DNA of 64,000 nucleotides from Candidatus Heimdallarchaeota archaeon (GCA_019057815.1 JAHLWR010000001.1:224001-288000); one strand, 5' to 3'. Positions 6,061 to 64,000 are shown, numbered from the stretch's first letter. Notes: a model not told the origin generated them from the letters alone. Translations and numbers: made by a program.

Positions 6061-7056
6061 TTACTTTTTATTGATAGTTACTTTCTTGTCTTCCAGTTTT
6101 ATTTTTTTAAAGAACAAAGTTGTTTGGGAAATAGACGTAATCGCAATTCCTAGTAAGATGACAAACATATAAAGAACAGTAATGGGTCGAGGAATCTCGC
6201 TTAAAATTACTATTCCTAAAATCGTTGCTCCTACAGGTTCCGCTACTATTACTGTACCAACAAAATAAGCTGGTAATCGTCTAAGAGAATAATTATAAGT
6301 TGCATGTCCGATTAAAGAAGGACCAATAGCCATTAACAGAATGAAAACAAAAGCAATAGCTGTATATTCGAATAAATCATAACCTCTTATTATATTGTAA
6401 AAAAGTAAACTTATCCCAGAAATTAAATTAACCAAACCAAAATATGGCCATAGAGGAGAATCTTGAAGGATTTTCTTACCGATTAGAAAATAGAAGGTTA
6501 CAGTTAACGCTCCAATAAGAGCAAAAAATATTCCCAATACCGGATTAACTTGTGATGTATCATCTGTTGTAGCAAAAGCCAATAATACACCTCCAACAAA
6601 TGCGAAGATAATCCCTATAATACCAAAACAATTAATTTTTTCTTTGAAGATAACAAAACCAAAGATTGCCATAAAAATAGGAACTGTATCTACTAGAGTT
6701 GTTGAAATGGCAACAGAAACATATTCTAATGATAAAAACCATGTCGCGAAATGTATTGCTAATAATATTCCTGAAATTATTATCCAATGTAATCTTTTAA
6801 CTGTGGTAGGTTTAACAATCCAATTTATTTCTCCCCTAGATAGTGCAAATATCAAGGCTATAACCCCAGCAAACAATGTTCTATACATTGCTATTACTTC
6901 AGAGGGCACATTATACCCAAATTCTGATGACTGAAGTACTGAAACAATAGGTGCAGCGAAAGAAACAGATATTATAGCTATGAATAACAAAAGATAAGGA
7001 AATAATCCTTTTTTATTTTCATTGATGCTTTTGTTTTCATTTTGCATAAATCGCAC
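6061..7056 (-). CDS. DMT/EamA-family transporter
   Basis: About 10 TM segments; HFATWFLSL and AEPVGATILG EamA patterns. Confidence 0.88.
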   Translation of the reverse strand: MRFMQNENKSINENKKGLFPYLLLFIAIISVSFAAPIVSVLQSSEFGYNVPSEVIAMYRTLFAGVIALIFALSRGEINWIVKPTTVKRLHWIIISGILLAIHFATWFLSLEYVSVAISTTLVDTVPIFMAIFGFVIFKEKINCFGIIGIIFAFVGGVLLAFATTDDTSQVNPVLGIFFALIGALTVTFYFLIGKKILQDSPLWPYFGLVNLISGISLLFYNIIRGYDLFEYTAIAFVFILLMAIGPSLIGHATYNYSLRRLPAYFVGTVIVAEPVGATILGIVILSEIPRPITVLYMFVILLGIAITSISQTTLFFKKIKLEDKKVTINKK

Positions 7057-8445: not shown

Positions 8446-8467
8446 CTAGGATGAAGATTTGAGGACA

Positions 8468-8506
8468 ATGAAAGGTGACTATGTTCCGACAAATACTTGT
8501 AAGTAA
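8468..8506 (+). promoter_or_regulatory. Putative proS leader uORF MKGDYVPTNTCK (Pro codon CCG at 8486-8488)
   Basis: ATG AAA GGT GAC TAT GTT CCG ACA AAT ACT TGT AAG TAA; the motif is shared with the thrS and leuS leaders. Confidence 0.6.
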
Positions 8507-36826: not shown

Positions 36827-39760
36827 CTATTCTAGAAGTAATGCAGGTTTCATTGGTCTGGCTTTTTGGGCTTTCTTTTGTGGATCATAAATCTCTTTTT
36901 CGTCAGCCATATGAATTAGGATTTTAGCTTTGTTGTATTTATCACTTATGAATTCTGTATATCCTTCTATTGCATTTTTTTGGTTTTTGGTAGATAGTAT
37001 TTTGATCCGAAAAATTGTTGGATCTTTCAGCATTAATTTTGCTTCATTTGCAATTTCCTTCATGTATTTACTTAGTTCATTATTATCTTTAGATGCTGAC
37101 ATTACTTTTCCTATTTGTACTGCTTCTTCCTCAAATATTTTTTTTGCTAATTCATATAATACATTCTTCCATTCTGCGTTGATGTAAATATGAATCTTCT
37201 TTGGCTTAGTTTTAACCAATTTAACTATCTGTTCAATATCTTCCATTAAATCAGTCATATATTTAGATTGCAGAGCATATAGTAAATCTTCATTAGTAAT
37301 AACAATATCTGGAATTAGTTTCAACGAAACATAGTCTGTATACCCCATTCTCTCATTCAACTCTTCACAGATATGAGGAATTGCTGGTGCCATAATAATG
37401 ACTATCTTCTCAATAATGTCTCTTAAAACAGCTTTTTTCTCGGTTTTTGGTAGATGTTCCGCTATTTTATAATATTCATCAATCGCTCTTATATTTGCAT
37501 AGAATCCATCTAAAATATAGTCTCTTGCATTGAACTTCTCAATTGCTTCTAGTGCACTTTTTAGGTTGGTTTTTACAGAAGAATGCAATATTTTTGATGG
37601 GAATGAGTAGGCAATGTTTTTCTTTCCAGTGGTATCTGTTACACTTAAAGCATATTCCCAGAATTTCCTCAACCTTTGTTTAGCATAATTCACTTCTGTA
37701 TCTTTCCATTCTAACACAGTCTCTGGTGTTGCAACAGATGCTAGATGTAATCTTGTTAGGTCAACACTGTATTTCTCCGGAACAAGGGCTATTGGAATAA
37801 CATTTCCTTTACTCTTACTCATCGCTTCTCCGAAACGACTTACCATATCGTTTAATGAGAAAGCAGGTAACCAGTATTTTTCAGGGAATATCGCTACATG
37901 GTGAAAGATTGCGAATGATAAATGATTAGAGATATGATGAATAGCTGTATGTCTAAGATCATTAGGATACCAATACTCAAATTCTTCTTTCATTTGTTTT
38001 ATAATATGTTCTGATAATTCTGTTTTCTTACTTACTTCCTTAATGTCACCTTCATCTAGAAGGATATAATCAAACAGCATAGGTTTCAGTTGATTAGCTT
38101 TTATATTGTTCTTTTTTATGTGTTTAACAATTGTGTAATATGCCATATAAATCACTGAATCACTCAGTGACTCAATTATCCATCCTTCTCCTTTTGTTAA
38201 TGGAAATTCTGTTCCTAGTCCTCTTCTTCTCACACAAGGTCTTTTATCTAACCAATTGAAAGTATTTTCAAAACTTTGTCTATATTTTTCTGGAATGATT
38301 GTCATTTTATTTAATGCTTCGAATGCTTTTTTATTCCATTCAGCATCTCCATAATTTAGGAAATATTGGTTCTGAATAATTGCTACAATAATTTGACCAC
38401 CACATCTACAAGAAGCTTTAGCAGATGTCTCATAAATAGGTGCTGCTAAATTAATATCAAATAGAACATCTGCGATTCTATCTTTTGCCTCTTCAATTTT
38501 TAATCCTTCGAAGTCTCCTGTATTATCCTTCATAATCCCAGAGTAATATTCATCCTTGTAAATCGTTTGAGTAGCCTTTTCTAATTTTCCAGTATCTTCT
38601 TGCGATTTAACACCCAATTTCTGACATAACTCTACTGCTGGAAAATCACCATAGTCTTTTACTTTAATCATGGATATAGGATTTATTTGTTTCAGCTTTT
38701 CAGAATTTAAAGCATATTTTTCAATTGTTTTTTCATCTTTCTGCAAATCAACTAAAGCAGTATAATCATAAGGAGCATGCCCAGGAACACTATAAACGAT
38801 ACCAGTAGCATGATCAGTATCAATAAAATTAGCTGGGTAAACAGGAATTTTACTTTTTGTTATTGGAACTTCAACAATCTTGTCTAAGATTTCTTCACCC
38901 TTCAGCTCTCTAATTATGGTGATTTTATGATCTTGTTCCATTAGCTTCATAGTTGCTTCTTTAGAAATTATCCATGTTTCATCATCGATGGAGATTTCAT
39001 TATAGAAACCATCAGGATGTATCCAAACATTGGTTGCTCCGAATATTGTTTCGGGTCGAAGTGTAGCTGCAACTAAAAAGGAGTTATTTTCAAGAATGAA
39101 TTTAATACCAACAAACTCAGTAACTTCTACTTTAATCTCATCTCCTGCTTGAATGTCATCTTCACCAACAGCGTTTTTATCGTTTATGCACCATAAAATA
39201 GGGTGATTTCCTTTAGTAATAAGGTTTTTATTGTTTAGCTTGATGTATTGCCATTCAATGAATTTGTTGTATTCTGAATCTCCTGTAGTGAATTGTCTAG
39301 TAGTATCAAGTGAATATCCCATTTTTAGAAAATCTTGAATTATTTTCTTTGCAAAATAACTAGCAACATTTTCTGGTTTTGTAAAAGAAGAGATTACTTC
39401 CTCAATTCTTTTTGTATCCTTTTCATATATTGAAATGTATTCACGATATTTTTTCCATTCATCTTCATCGTTATTCCGAATTTTCCAGGATACAGCGAGA
39501 ACTGGAGTACCAGTTATATGAAAACCCATTGGCCACAAAACATTGTATCCTTGTTGTCTTTTGTATCTGGCAAATATATCACCTAAACCATAAGTTCTAC
39601 TATGACCTATGTGAAGAGGAGCAGTAGCATAAGGATAAGACACTGTTAGAAACCATTTTGGTTTGCTCTTATCAATAACACCTACGAAAACATTATCTTC
39701 TTGCCATTTCTTTTGCCATTTCTTTTCGATCTCACGTATTACTTCGAGAAAATTCGTCAT
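36827..39760 (-). CDS. leuS: Leucine--tRNA ligase, archaeal/eukaryotic type
   Basis: YPY...LHIGH, GFHITGTP, ATLRPET, SVPGHAPYD, IESLSDS, AMSKSKGN, KARPMKPAL; ATG at 39760 (GTG at 39769 is an alternative). Confidence 0.97.
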   Translation of the reverse strand: MTNFLEVIREIEKKWQKKWQEDNVFVGVIDKSKPKWFLTVSYPYATAPLHIGHSRTYGLGDIFARYKRQQGYNVLWPMGFHITGTPVLAVSWKIRNNDEDEWKKYREYISIYEKDTKRIEEVISSFTKPENVASYFAKKIIQDFLKMGYSLDTTRQFTTGDSEYNKFIEWQYIKLNNKNLITKGNHPILWCINDKNAVGEDDIQAGDEIKVEVTEFVGIKFILENNSFLVAATLRPETIFGATNVWIHPDGFYNEISIDDETWIISKEATMKLMEQDHKITIIRELKGEEILDKIVEVPITKSKIPVYPANFIDTDHATGIVYSVPGHAPYDYTALVDLQKDEKTIEKYALNSEKLKQINPISMIKVKDYGDFPAVELCQKLGVKSQEDTGKLEKATQTIYKDEYYSGIMKDNTGDFEGLKIEEAKDRIADVLFDINLAAPIYETSAKASCRCGGQIIVAIIQNQYFLNYGDAEWNKKAFEALNKMTIIPEKYRQSFENTFNWLDKRPCVRRRGLGTEFPLTKGEGWIIESLSDSVIYMAYYTIVKHIKKNNIKANQLKPMLFDYILLDEGDIKEVSKKTELSEHIIKQMKEEFEYWYPNDLRHTAIHHISNHLSFAIFHHVAIFPEKYWLPAFSLNDMVSRFGEAMSKSKGNVIPIALVPEKYSVDLTRLHLASVATPETVLEWKDTEVNYAKQRLRKFWEYALSVTDTTGKKNIAYSFPSKILHSSVKTNLKSALEAIEKFNARDYILDGFYANIRAIDEYYKIAEHLPKTEKKAVLRDIIEKIVIIMAPAIPHICEELNERMGYTDYVSLKLIPDIVITNEDLLYALQSKYMTDLMEDIEQIVKLVKTKPKKIHIYINAEWKNVLYELAKKIFEEEAVQIGKVMSASKDNNELSKYMKEIANEAKLMLKDPTIFRIKILSTKNQKNAIEGYTEFISDKYNKAKILIHMADEKEIYDPQKKAQKARPMKPALLLE

Positions 39761-39924
39761 AATAATCACTTTGTTTCTCCTTTTGTCTATAGTTCACTGA
39801 TGATTCCATACAACGCTTTGAATTGTAGAGCCAAAACGCTAAATTAAAAGCTTTACTTCCAATCATTAGAATAGATTTTCCTAAGAATAAAATCTGGAAA
39901 CCACTAAATTTCAAAGGTAGAGCT

Positions 39925-39954
39925 TCAAATGGGAAGAACACATTCACCAGTCAT
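39925..39954 (-). promoter_or_regulatory. Putative leuS leader uORF MTGECVLPI (Leu codon CTT at 39936-39934)
   Basis: Minus strand GGAGAATAATATA ATG ACT GGT GAA TGT GTT CTT CCC ATT TGA; same G-E-C core as the thrS uORF. Confidence 0.55.
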
Positions 39955-40016
39955 TATATTATTCTCCGTGTAGTTTCCTAAAGAATCAAGAATTCTTTAC
40001 ATTTTTAAATTTTATG

Positions 40017-40031
40017 AAGAAGAAGAAGAAG
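40017..40031. repeat. (AAG)5 trinucleotide repeat, read as (CTT)5 Leu codons on the leuS strand
   Basis: Direct reading of the sequence. Confidence 0.85.
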
Positions 40032-40260
40032 TTGGCGTAATTGGGCTGTTTGGTGCTCACACACTAGTAAACAAGCGTATTAGAAATTGTTTTATCATCG
40101 TTCACACCTTTTGAAACATAACTTGCATTCTTGAAGAATGAAATAACAAGAATTTGTTATTTATTTTTATGTTCATTTATTCAGTTTAATGAACTGTCGT
40201 TATATCATTGACTTTTTAAGTTGCTAAAAAACGACCACATAGGAATATCGAGGTTATATA

Positions 40261-41073
40261 ATGCAAGCTAATATCCAAACAGAAGAGGACAAAATAATTG
40301 AGGGAATACTAAGCAAGTTTAAGCATAAATTTGCTGTTTTAAGTGGAAAAGGTGGTACAGGAAAAACTACCATAACAGTAAACATTGCACAAACATTAGC
40401 CAATCTAGGTTATAAAGTAGGAGTTTTAGATTCAGATATAACAGGACCTAATATCCCATTAATGTTTGGGGTTGAGCACGCAACTTTACAATCAAAAGAC
40501 AATAAAATCCTTCCAATAGAAGTCGGCAATATAAAAATCGTTTCAATCGAATTCTTACTTGAGGATAAAAGCAAAGCTATAATTTGGCGAGGTCCTATGA
40601 AAATTAAGGCTTTAAAACAGCTTATAAAAGATGTTGAATGGGGAGAGTTAGACTTTTTCATAGTAGATTTACCTCCTGGAAGCAGTGACGAACCATTAAG
40701 CATAGTACAAACAATAAAAGATCTGGATGGAATGGTTATAGTTACCACACCACAAGAAGTATCGCTACTAGATGTTAAGAAATCAATCAACTTTGCTGAA
40801 GTTACCAATGTTCCAATTATAGGTATCATAGAAAACATGAGTGGTTTTAAGTGTCAACACTGTAATGAAATAACATACATCTTCAAAAAAGACGGTGGAA
40901 AAAATATTGCTAAAGATCTTTCTCTCGATTTTCTAGGAGTCATTCCTATAATACCTGAAATCTGTGAGGCTGGCGATATAGGTGAACCCGCTGTAAATAC
41001 TAATGATGCGACGAAAAATGTATTCCTTGAAATAGTTAATAAAATAATTAACAAGACTTCAAATAAGGCTTAA
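40261..41073 (+). CDS. Mrp/NBP35 Fe-S carrier ATPase
   Basis: SGKGGTGKTT, DSDITGP, IWRGP, DLPPG, VTTPQ, ENMSGFKCQHC motifs. Confidence 0.93.
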   Translation: MQANIQTEEDKIIEGILSKFKHKFAVLSGKGGTGKTTITVNIAQTLANLGYKVGVLDSDITGPNIPLMFGVEHATLQSKDNKILPIEVGNIKIVSIEFLLEDKSKAIIWRGPMKIKALKQLIKDVEWGELDFFIVDLPPGSSDEPLSIVQTIKDLDGMVIVTTPQEVSLLDVKKSINFAEVTNVPIIGIIENMSGFKCQHCNEITYIFKKDGGKNIAKDLSLDFLGVIPIIPEICEAGDIGEPAVNTNDATKNVFLEIVNKIINKTSNKA

Positions 41074-63604: not shown

Positions 63605-64000
63605 CTTGAGTTTCTACAAATTTGCAATTATAGACAATTATGGAAGAGAAGAAGTATCAAAAATACAAAAATAAGATAATTACCAGAATAAACAAGAAAC
63701 AAAAAAGCTCAATAATCAAATTAAGAACTATATATACTTCTGGGCAAGAGGAGGAATATGGACAGAATAACAAGAAAAAACAAAGGATTAAGAATGAAAA
63801 TATAAAAACAATTTATCCTATATAAAAAGATATTATTTGTAGAGAAAACATTAATGTCCAACCGTTAAACAAAGGAATTGAACGAGAGGACGAAAAAGAG
63901 GAGAATACAAGGGTTTGGAGGGGGGTAGAATAGCAAAAGGTATGCAGAAGGGTTGTAATAAGGAAAAAAAAGAGCACAACCGAAAAGGTTTTTAATAGAC

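Follow-up and report, generated by a model that had tools for sequence, protein, structure and literature searches.

To our knowledge, the regulation of archaeal aminoacyl-tRNA synthetase genes is essentially unknown. The leuS gene of a Candidatus Heimdallarchaeota archaeon, which is preceded by a nine-codon upstream open reading frame (uORF) containing a leucine codon, raises the question of whether such a leader could report on the charging of tRNA-Leu, and if so by what means. The window analysed here is a stretch of 64,000 nt from this organism (GCA_019057815.1 JAHLWR010000001.1:224001-288000; genome G+C content 33%), in which positions are counted from the first letter, and the features discussed below are collected in Table 1. 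The product of leuS is recognised as a LeuRS by its Pfam domains, namely tRNA-synt_1, the LeuRS editing domain and Anticodon_1. Automatic ORF calling had placed the start of the gene at GTG 39769, which we rejected, as this triplet corresponds to the degenerate GGTGA Shine-Dalgarno (SD) sequence of relatives.

Table 1. Features of leuS and its leader, in window coordinates.
Feature	Position	Strand	Description
leuS	36827..39760	-	Archaeal-type leucyl-tRNA synthetase, 977 aa from ATG 39760; start set by alignment with relatives
leuS SD	39766..39770	-	AGUGA here, GGUGA in relatives; 5 nt ahead of ATG
+1 frame	39732..39950	-	TGA at uORF nt 2-4, then about 72 open codons across the leader and the leuS ATG to TGA 39734-39732
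P2, CTTTTAAT(TT) element	39841..39850	-	Candidate proximal leuS promoter, inside the +1 frame; AT-rich site near 39845
U-rich tract	39873..39895	-	UUUU 39892-39889, directly after the hairpin; second small hairpin possible (AGAUUUU/AAAAUCU); candidate termination signal
3' hairpin arm, GUGGUUUCC	39896..39904	-	20 nt past the uORF stop
uORF	39925..39954	-	ATG ACT GGT GAA TGT GTT CTT CCC ATT TGA, encoding MTGECVLPI; read from the sequence, homologues in 56 leuS leaders
Proposed shift site, GUU CUU	39934..39939	-	Val codon as P site, invariant Leu codon as A site; +1 slip would give UUC
Internal SD-like GGUGA	39944..39948	-	4 nt ahead of the GUU codon; candidate frameshift stimulator, function by analogy with prfB
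uORF SD	39964..39967	-	GGAG; 9-nt spacer (aataatata) to ATG
5' hairpin arm, GGAAACUAC	39970..39978	-	Pairs with 39904-39896; the hairpin encloses the uORF
P1, TATA-like box TTTAAAAA	40002..40009	-	Putative promoter, read from the sequence

The initial annotation had described the uORF as a GGAG followed, after 9 nt, by ATG ACT GGT GAA TGT GTT CTT, with its stop 164 nt from the leuS ATG (39760), and every detail of this geometry is exact on the minus strand. Two further synthetase genes in the same window are also preceded by short uORFs, encoding MNKGECETNR ahead of thrS and MKGDYVPTNTCK ahead of proS, each followed by a stop, and the resemblances that had been proposed among the three hold when the sequences are read side by side. 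GGTGAATG is common to the leuS and thrS uORFs (the latter reads ATG AAT AAA GGT GAA TGC GAA ACA), TRT-GTT is common to the leuS and proS uORFs (GAC TAT GTT CCG in proS), and a GAGGACA prefix is missing from the leuS uORF here, with a related TTGAGGAAACCAAAATG present in relatives. The underlying pattern, in which each uORF carries a codon for the amino acid of the synthetase encoded downstream, also recurs in relatives for proS (Pro) and thrS (Thr). The placement of Leu four residues after Gly needs to be read differently: the position of the Leu is real, and the register is incidental, as the Gly codon belongs to the internal SD-like GGUGA, which explains the Gly+4 spacing. Most relatives read M-R-N-Y-V-L or M-G-Y-R-V-L instead. 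Judged from the leaders compared, the conserved unit is an RGG or GGUGA, a fixed spacer, an NUU codon and then the cognate codon.

We took leuS 5' regions from 73 places in relatives and found a homologous uORF in 56 leuS leaders, a raw count that, like those that follow, overstates the number of independent observations because the sampled genomes are related. These leaders belong to six families (f1-f6), four of the same order and two of other orders of the class, and both the uORF and its Leu at this position are thus conserved in leuS leaders across the class. The commonest form consists of an SD (GAGGU or GAGGA), 7-8 nt, and then ATG AGG AAT TAC GTT CTN, and example peptides include MRNYVL..., MGYRVLL... 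and MKGDYVLL.... The distance from ATG to GTT is 6, 9 or 12 nt depending on the lineage, so that the frame is kept, and the stop lies 0-7 codons past the Leu codon in all 56 leaders. The invariant Leu codon is CTT in 33 leaders, CTC in 15 and CTA in 8; TTA and TTG, which together make up 48% of the Leu codons in the long ORFs of this genome, are never used. The codon that follows varies freely. Most of family f1 has two Leu codons in tandem, and the genus of this genome has a single one. By these comparisons, a uORF with an invariant Leu codon is far beyond chance. Against this background, the idea that the leuS copy studied here, as the most divergent member of the set, offers an independent test of the cognate-codon model needs changing: this copy derives from the common leuS leader and was not invented independently. 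MTGECVLPI is, from its alignment with the commoner forms, a version in which an insertion supplied a new SD and GGUGA took the place of RGG. The uORF is identical in three genomes (G000, G001 and G019), though their flanks differ.

The same comparisons bear on the possibility that nothing is translated here, GTTCTTC being a pyrimidine-rich, anti-SD-like pairing motif of an untranslated RNA element, or a product of pure chance, with the Val-Leu reading as a by-product. UUCUUC does pair with purine-rich segments in all folds, the shift site of family f5 pairs, by eye, with a downstream GAGAACGU, and in the proS leader GTTCTTC is found outside the uORF as well. However, indels of 3 and 6 nt have left the start codon, the frame and the in-frame stop intact, the Leu codon has T, C or A at its third position without a change of meaning, and the frame-specific absence of stops and the cognate depletion described below cannot arise from untranslated RNA. 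We therefore consider this explanation highly improbable.

No uORF was found in family f7, where leuS overlaps the end of the upstream gene, nor in five genomes of the genus g3 (L009, L018, L019, L021 and L073). In L009 (G020:C31) the loss is a deletion: relative to L006, this locus lacks the uORF together with its promoter and the 5' half of the hairpin, and the upstream gene is immediately followed by leuS. Two copies of GATATC(T/C)GTTT flank the gap exactly, which therefore looks like a repeat-mediated deletion (or an assembly collapse). One genome, G046, has two LeuRS genes (C7:22708-23301 and C14:34961-35518; L073 and L069), one of the g3 type without the uORF and the other f3-like (38% identity), with a uORF encoding MRNCLLNN and a 75-codon open +1 frame; as G046 is 8% contaminated, the second copy may be from another organism. 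In G063:C5:40789-41067 (L056), a 115-aa open frame immediately ahead of the full-length leuS gives a second, short match to the LeuRS N-terminus, and no uORF was seen at this short match.

The codon immediately ahead of the invariant Leu codon is nearly as constrained as the Leu codon itself, being GTT in 50 of the 56 leaders, TTT in three, CTT in two and GAT in one, where it is followed by CTT CTT. The resulting motif is N-UUC-UN, with NUU followed by C in 55/56 leaders. Because the NUU that would occupy the P site precedes a C, a slip of the ribosome by one base in the +1 direction would place UUC in the P site. The tRNA genes encoded include Val(GAC), Phe(GAA), Leu(GAG) and Leu(UAG), and with the G34/A35 tRNAs (Val-GAC, Phe-GAA and Leu-GAG) a slip from NUU to UUC would, on base-pairing grounds, swap a G-U wobble for a G-C pair. 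On UUC, tRNA-Val(GAC) has a first-position mismatch, which counts against the model. We also considered P-site slippage of tRNA-Leu on the invariant Leu codon itself as a general mechanism, and rejected it because re-pairing is not possible on CUA-N and the codon after Leu shows no conservation.

An SD-like element, either RGG at 6 nt or GGUGA at 4 nt, lies ahead of the P-site codon in about 52 of the 56 leuS leaders. A matching anti-SD, CCUCC, is present, and the 3' end of the 16S rRNA carries GGATCACCTCCT and ends in GGAUCACCUCCU. The 16S rRNA is found in two copies on the minus strand of contig C23 of G000 (reverse-strand offsets 28643 and 43158). Its 3' end reads ...GAACCTGCGG, followed by about 32 extra bases (AAATACATGAGTAGAAACTTATGTATCGCAAG) and then TGGATCACCTCCT, and the extra bases form a small insertion or mini-intron just ahead of the anti-Shine-Dalgarno.

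Ribosomes that slip at this site would enter the +1 frame. Between the Leu codon and position -16 of leuS, none of the 2,475 codons of this frame in the 56 leaders is a stop, versus 312 stops among as many codons in frame 0 and 149 in frame +2, and in every leader the +1 frame is uninterrupted between the Leu codon and the leuS start. A shift of -1/+2 was rejected on the strength of the 149 stops in the +2 frame. Tested leader by leader against shuffles, the open +1 frame has p values of 0.003-0.01 in the 170-200-nt leaders of family f1 and 0.01-0.3 in shorter ones. Leaders of different families cannot be mutually aligned, and by our own estimate, multiplying one value for each of about seven unalignable lineages, the joint probability would be near 1e-10. 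The leuS leader of this window, taken by itself, has 68 open +1-frame codons beyond the shift site (p about 0.0065). The end of the frame is also placed with respect to leuS: in 18 leaders its stop overlaps the start codon as xTGA (+1), in six it lies at -16 to -7 and in 28 at +5 to +32. In three leaders, L034 (G026), L036 (G036) and L059 (G070:C38), the +1 frame is in frame with leuS, and a frameshifted ribosome would make a LeuRS with an N-terminal extension of about 18-40 residues.

An open frame of this kind might also be a second upstream ORF in its own right. In that case the long +1 frame (71 aa from GTG 39947) would start alone and be coupled to leuS, and the short uORF overlapping it would merely compete for ribosomes. 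GTG codons do occur in the +1 frame within the uORF in most of family f1 and in this genome (at uORF nt 8 and 14), and the ending of the frame at or near the leuS start resembles the arrangement of coupled genes. However, 13 of the first 35 leaders examined, including all of family f4 and most of f3, lack any ATG, GTG or TTG in the part of the +1 frame that runs from its upstream stop to the Leu codon, and in these the frame could be entered only from the uORF. A TGA at uORF nt 2-4 closes the frame in 20 of the same 35. Such GTGs as are present follow the SD-like element by 2-3 nt, too short a distance for a start, although in this genome the 71-aa frame may conceivably still initiate independently. 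Families do not share conserved +1 peptides, a Pfam search with the 71-aa +1 ORF gave no match, and independent initiation leaves both the invariant Leu codon and the cognate depletion unexplained. Such a pair of overlapping ORFs thus seems very unlikely to us.

A ribosome that has shifted for want of a charged tRNA should not meet the codon for that tRNA again, and we therefore tested the +1 frames for depletion of the cognate amino acid by comparing their amino acids with those of composition-matched shuffles. Leu is present at 0.46 of expectation in the +1 frames of leuS leaders, where Thr and Pro stand at 0.89 and 0.92. The +1 frames of thrS leaders contain Thr at 0.06 of expectation (Leu at 1.73), and those of proS leaders contain no Pro versus 11 expected (Leu at 0.76). 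In the leuS leaders the +2 frame is not poor in Leu, and within the +1 frame CUN codons are more depleted than UUR codons. No depletion of Leu was seen in the +1 frame of the genus to which this genome belongs (21 observed, 21.3 expected), nor in g5. Together with the single Leu codon of its uORF, the lack of depletion in its own genus suggests that the leuS copy in this genome may be a weakened version.

Classical leader-peptide attenuation without any frameshift, in which a stall at the Leu codon alone would remodel the leader RNA, namely its hairpin and U-tract, and let transcription or translation proceed into leuS, shares several elements with what is found here. The uORF is short and carries a cognate codon, in tandem in most of family f1; a hairpin encloses both the uORF and its SD, with a U-rich tract behind it; and transcription and translation are coupled in archaea. 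What stalling leaves unexplained is the difference in stops between the three frames, the ending of the +1 frame at the leuS start or its fusion to the gene, the scarcity of the cognate amino acid in that frame and the NUU ahead of Leu. In addition, we looked in the leuS leaders for a conserved pair of mutually exclusive structures and found none. We regard attenuation of this type as unlikely. A +1 frameshift sensor accounts for the data better than a stalling leader peptide does, because the +1 frame is both stop-free to the leuS start in 56/56 leaders and poor in the cognate amino acid. The original interpretation of the locus is to this extent partly supported: a cognate-codon sensor appears to be present, but of the frameshift type.

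In family f1 the uORF lies inside a long imperfect hairpin, whose outer stem joins the 5' end and SD region to a segment 18-20 nt past the uORF stop; in relatives GGAAACC or GGAGACC pairs with GGUUUCC or GGUCUUC, and G019 (L017) carries a compensating change, GUAGUUUCC. The register is supported in relatives, with 85.6% of cells paired, versus at most 59% when the arms are slid against each other. In the alignment of relatives, covariation in the three-tier hairpin is not beyond that of shuffles, RNAalifold gave no consensus structure on the 297-column alignment of family f1 leaders, and the structures in families f3 and f4 are inconsistent between genomes. The hairpin has a folding-energy z-score of -1.3, and the whole leader one of -0.15; as these energies are not unusual, we do not rest the case on structure. 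Runs of five to eight T residues follow the hairpin or uORF region in many relatives, and the hairpin and U-tract are a plausible, putative terminator or masking element. Searches against Rfam gave no match, T-box included, for the whole window at the gathering threshold, and only two chance-level matches to unrelated families for 39700-40300 at E values up to 1.

Transcription of leuS may start from two places. P1, ahead of the uORF, would set the transcription start about 25-27 nt downstream, immediately ahead of the 5' hairpin arm, and the equivalent site in relatives is AAAAGTTTAATAAAT, about 27 nt ahead of GAGGAAACC. The second element, P2, looks like an archaeal TATA box and is conserved across family f1 as AAAGATAACGCTTTTAAT, with the +1 frame remaining open across it. 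A wider form of P2, AAAGATAAC(G/T)CTTTTAAT, lies about 90 nt ahead of leuS in family f1. P2 is the only leader element kept in the five uORF-less genomes, and because it is conserved even there, a constitutive proximal leuS promoter probably coexists with the regulated leader. As P2 lies between the uORF and leuS, and is kept where the uORF is lost, much of the leuS mRNA may bypass the leader.

The leader of this particular genome might be a decaying relic, with leuS expressed from the proximal CTTTTAAT promoter and the uORF now regulating nothing. The conservation of that element, its retention in the five g3-genus genomes and the state of the leader in the organism's own genus, with a single Leu codon, a replaced SD and no Leu depletion in the +1 frame, would all be expected of a relic. 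A decaying leader would not readily account for a +1 frame that is still open for 68 codons past the shift site, for a uORF that is identical in G000, G001 and G019 despite their differing flanks, or for the compensating change in the hairpin arms of G019. We think it improbable that the leader has lost its function.

We propose instead that the leuS leader senses the charging of tRNA-Leu through a +1 ribosomal frameshift at a hungry codon, a model that we hold to be likely. From the observed anatomy, conservation, frame statistics and cognate depletion we infer frameshifting, its dependence on leucine and a route from the frameshifted ribosome to more leuS expression, which could operate as follows. 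Transcription would begin at the upstream promoter P1, and a ribosome would load on the nine-codon uORF and arrive with GUU (Val) in the P site and CUU, the single invariant Leu codon, in the A site. When Leu-tRNA-Leu is plentiful, Leu would be inserted and the ribosome would reach the stop two codons on, well short of leuS. When Leu-tRNA-Leu is scarce, the A site would stay empty, and the P-site tRNA-Val(GAC) would slip from GUU to UUC, its G34-U wobble giving way to a G34-C pair, possibly helped by the SD-like GGUGA a few bases upstream. The shifted ribosome would then read the stop-free +1 frame over the whole leader and end 27-29 nt past the leuS ATG. Its passage is predicted to raise LeuRS synthesis, possibly by termination-reinitiation at the leuS start, with direct fusion in the three genomes noted above; alternatively, passage could keep the hairpin and U-tract from ending transcription or masking sites. 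More LeuRS would restore charging and thereby close a negative feedback loop.

The nearest mechanistic counterpart of the proposed sensor is the autoregulatory +1 programmed frameshift of prfB, which encodes bacterial release factor 2 (PMC5009743). The two share a short ORF in the zero frame, closed shortly past the shift site, and a slippery P-site codon able to re-pair after a move of one base (CUU-U in prfB, NUU-C in the leuS leader), together with an SD-like stimulator, a candidate one in the case of leuS, a few bases upstream and a negative feedback logic. In both, the speed of decoding of the A-site codon depends on the product of the regulated gene, which in the leuS leader would act through Leu as the presumed rate limit. 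They differ in that the hungry A-site codon is a stop codon in prfB and, in the leuS leader, a sense codon for the cognate aminoacyl-tRNA, and in the distance of the SD-like element from the P-site codon (6 nt, or 4 nt for GGUGA, versus 3 in prfB). Moreover, the +1 frame of leuS stops at or near the gene start in 53/56 leaders and would there only carry the ribosome to a separate gene, with a fusion that encodes the product in only 3/56 leaders, and the leuS leader is archaeal and described here by comparative sequence analysis.

The closest precedent for a frameshift in a leader ORF that switches on a downstream gene is the ketolide-induced frameshift in the ermC leader (PMC5009743, section 28), which likewise carries ribosomes past the leader stop into the spacer. 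There, however, the trigger is an antibiotic on the ribosome and not tRNA charging, cognate-codon logic has no part, and the system is bacterial. Frameshifting in pheL is regarded as incidental (PMC5009743).

The trpL, leuL and pheM-pheST attenuators resemble the leuS leader in that a short upstream ORF reports one charged tRNA through cognate codons, ahead of a gene for the metabolism or charging of that amino acid, and leader-peptide attenuators have also been predicted in actinobacteria (PMC1262725). They depend on a stalled ribosome and on terminator and antiterminator hairpins that exclude each other, alternative structures of a kind not found in the leuS leader, and a stop-free, cognate-poor +1 frame that ends at the gene start has no role in attenuation. 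T-boxes, which are cis-acting leaders ahead of aminoacyl-tRNA synthetase genes in Gram-positive bacteria, also sense tRNA charging. They do so by binding uncharged tRNA directly, whereas the leuS leader, which lacks an Rfam T-box match, would be read by ribosomes. According to a 2021 review, the only demonstrated frameshift in an archaeal cellular gene is a -1 event in fucA1 of Saccharolobus (PMC8211752). In the literature on archaeal synthetase genes we found no leader-peptide, leader-ORF or frameshift control, and the way in which the leuS leader would sense tRNA charging is apparently unpublished.

If the model is true, no cis-regulatory system of archaeal synthetase genes would have been described before this one, which would also be the first regulatory +1 frameshift in archaeal cellular genes, and attenuation and T-boxes would be joined by a third cis-acting means of sensing tRNA charging. 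The closest archaeal relatives of eukaryotes would then gauge the charging of individual tRNAs by means of the ribosome, through the choice of frame at a single codon. The design joins the logic of bacterial leader peptides to that of prfB, and is simple and modular, such that changing one codon should change the amino acid that is sensed. It would also mean that short 'intergenic' leaders of these genomes are translated in two frames and have been missed by standard annotation.

Finally, we asked how far the arrangement extends to other synthetases. A genome-wide search with the peptide motif M-x(0-3)-G-[ED]-[CYFW] gave 72 matches that were mostly noise; as the motif proved too permissive, synthetases were examined gene by gene. 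The proS leaders (15, from four families) have NUU CCN, as GTT CCG, CTT CCA or CTT CCT, and an open +1 frame. The thrS leaders (23) have GAA ACA, where a slip would place AAA in the P site, with the +1 frame open and the +2 frame closed. The two ileS paralogs of this genome have GAA ATT and a +1 frame open to the gene start. GUU thus stands ahead of cognate codons with an initial C, and GAA ahead of cognate codons with an initial A, which by base pairing matches the need to re-pair after a one-base slip. In this genome, by eye and among ATG-started uORFs only, no similar uORF was seen before the Cys, Ala, Arg, Glu/Gln, Asp/Asn, Tyr, Trp, Met and Val synthetase genes, nor before the three other class II (2b) synthetase genes. 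We find it reasonably likely that at least the Leu, Pro, Thr and Ile synthetase genes, across the whole Heimdall-group class, are under one modular device, composed of an SD-like element, a slippery codon (NUU before C-initial and GAA before A-initial codons), one cognate hungry codon and a stop-free, cognate-poor +1 frame to the gene start.

Several of these leaders show individual features. The IleRS paralogs (about 1054 and 1070 aa) have uORFs that encode MGREIC and MDREIPFRK, each followed by a stop, at G000:C11 about 6170-6262 (plus strand) and G000:C35 about 63648-63845 (plus strand). In the proS uORF of this window (8467-8505, plus strand), the putative sensing codon, CCG, is the rarest Pro codon in the genome (4.2%), and GTTCTTC recurs just past the uORF stop. 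A uORF is also found ahead of the gene for PheRS alpha (G000:C5, minus strand), where it encodes MKIKGTCITWNFISPS, spans -113 to -62 and begins with ATGA, with a +1 frame open to +5 of pheS. Its Phe codon is preceded by AAU, and so lies outside the NUU or GAA rule.
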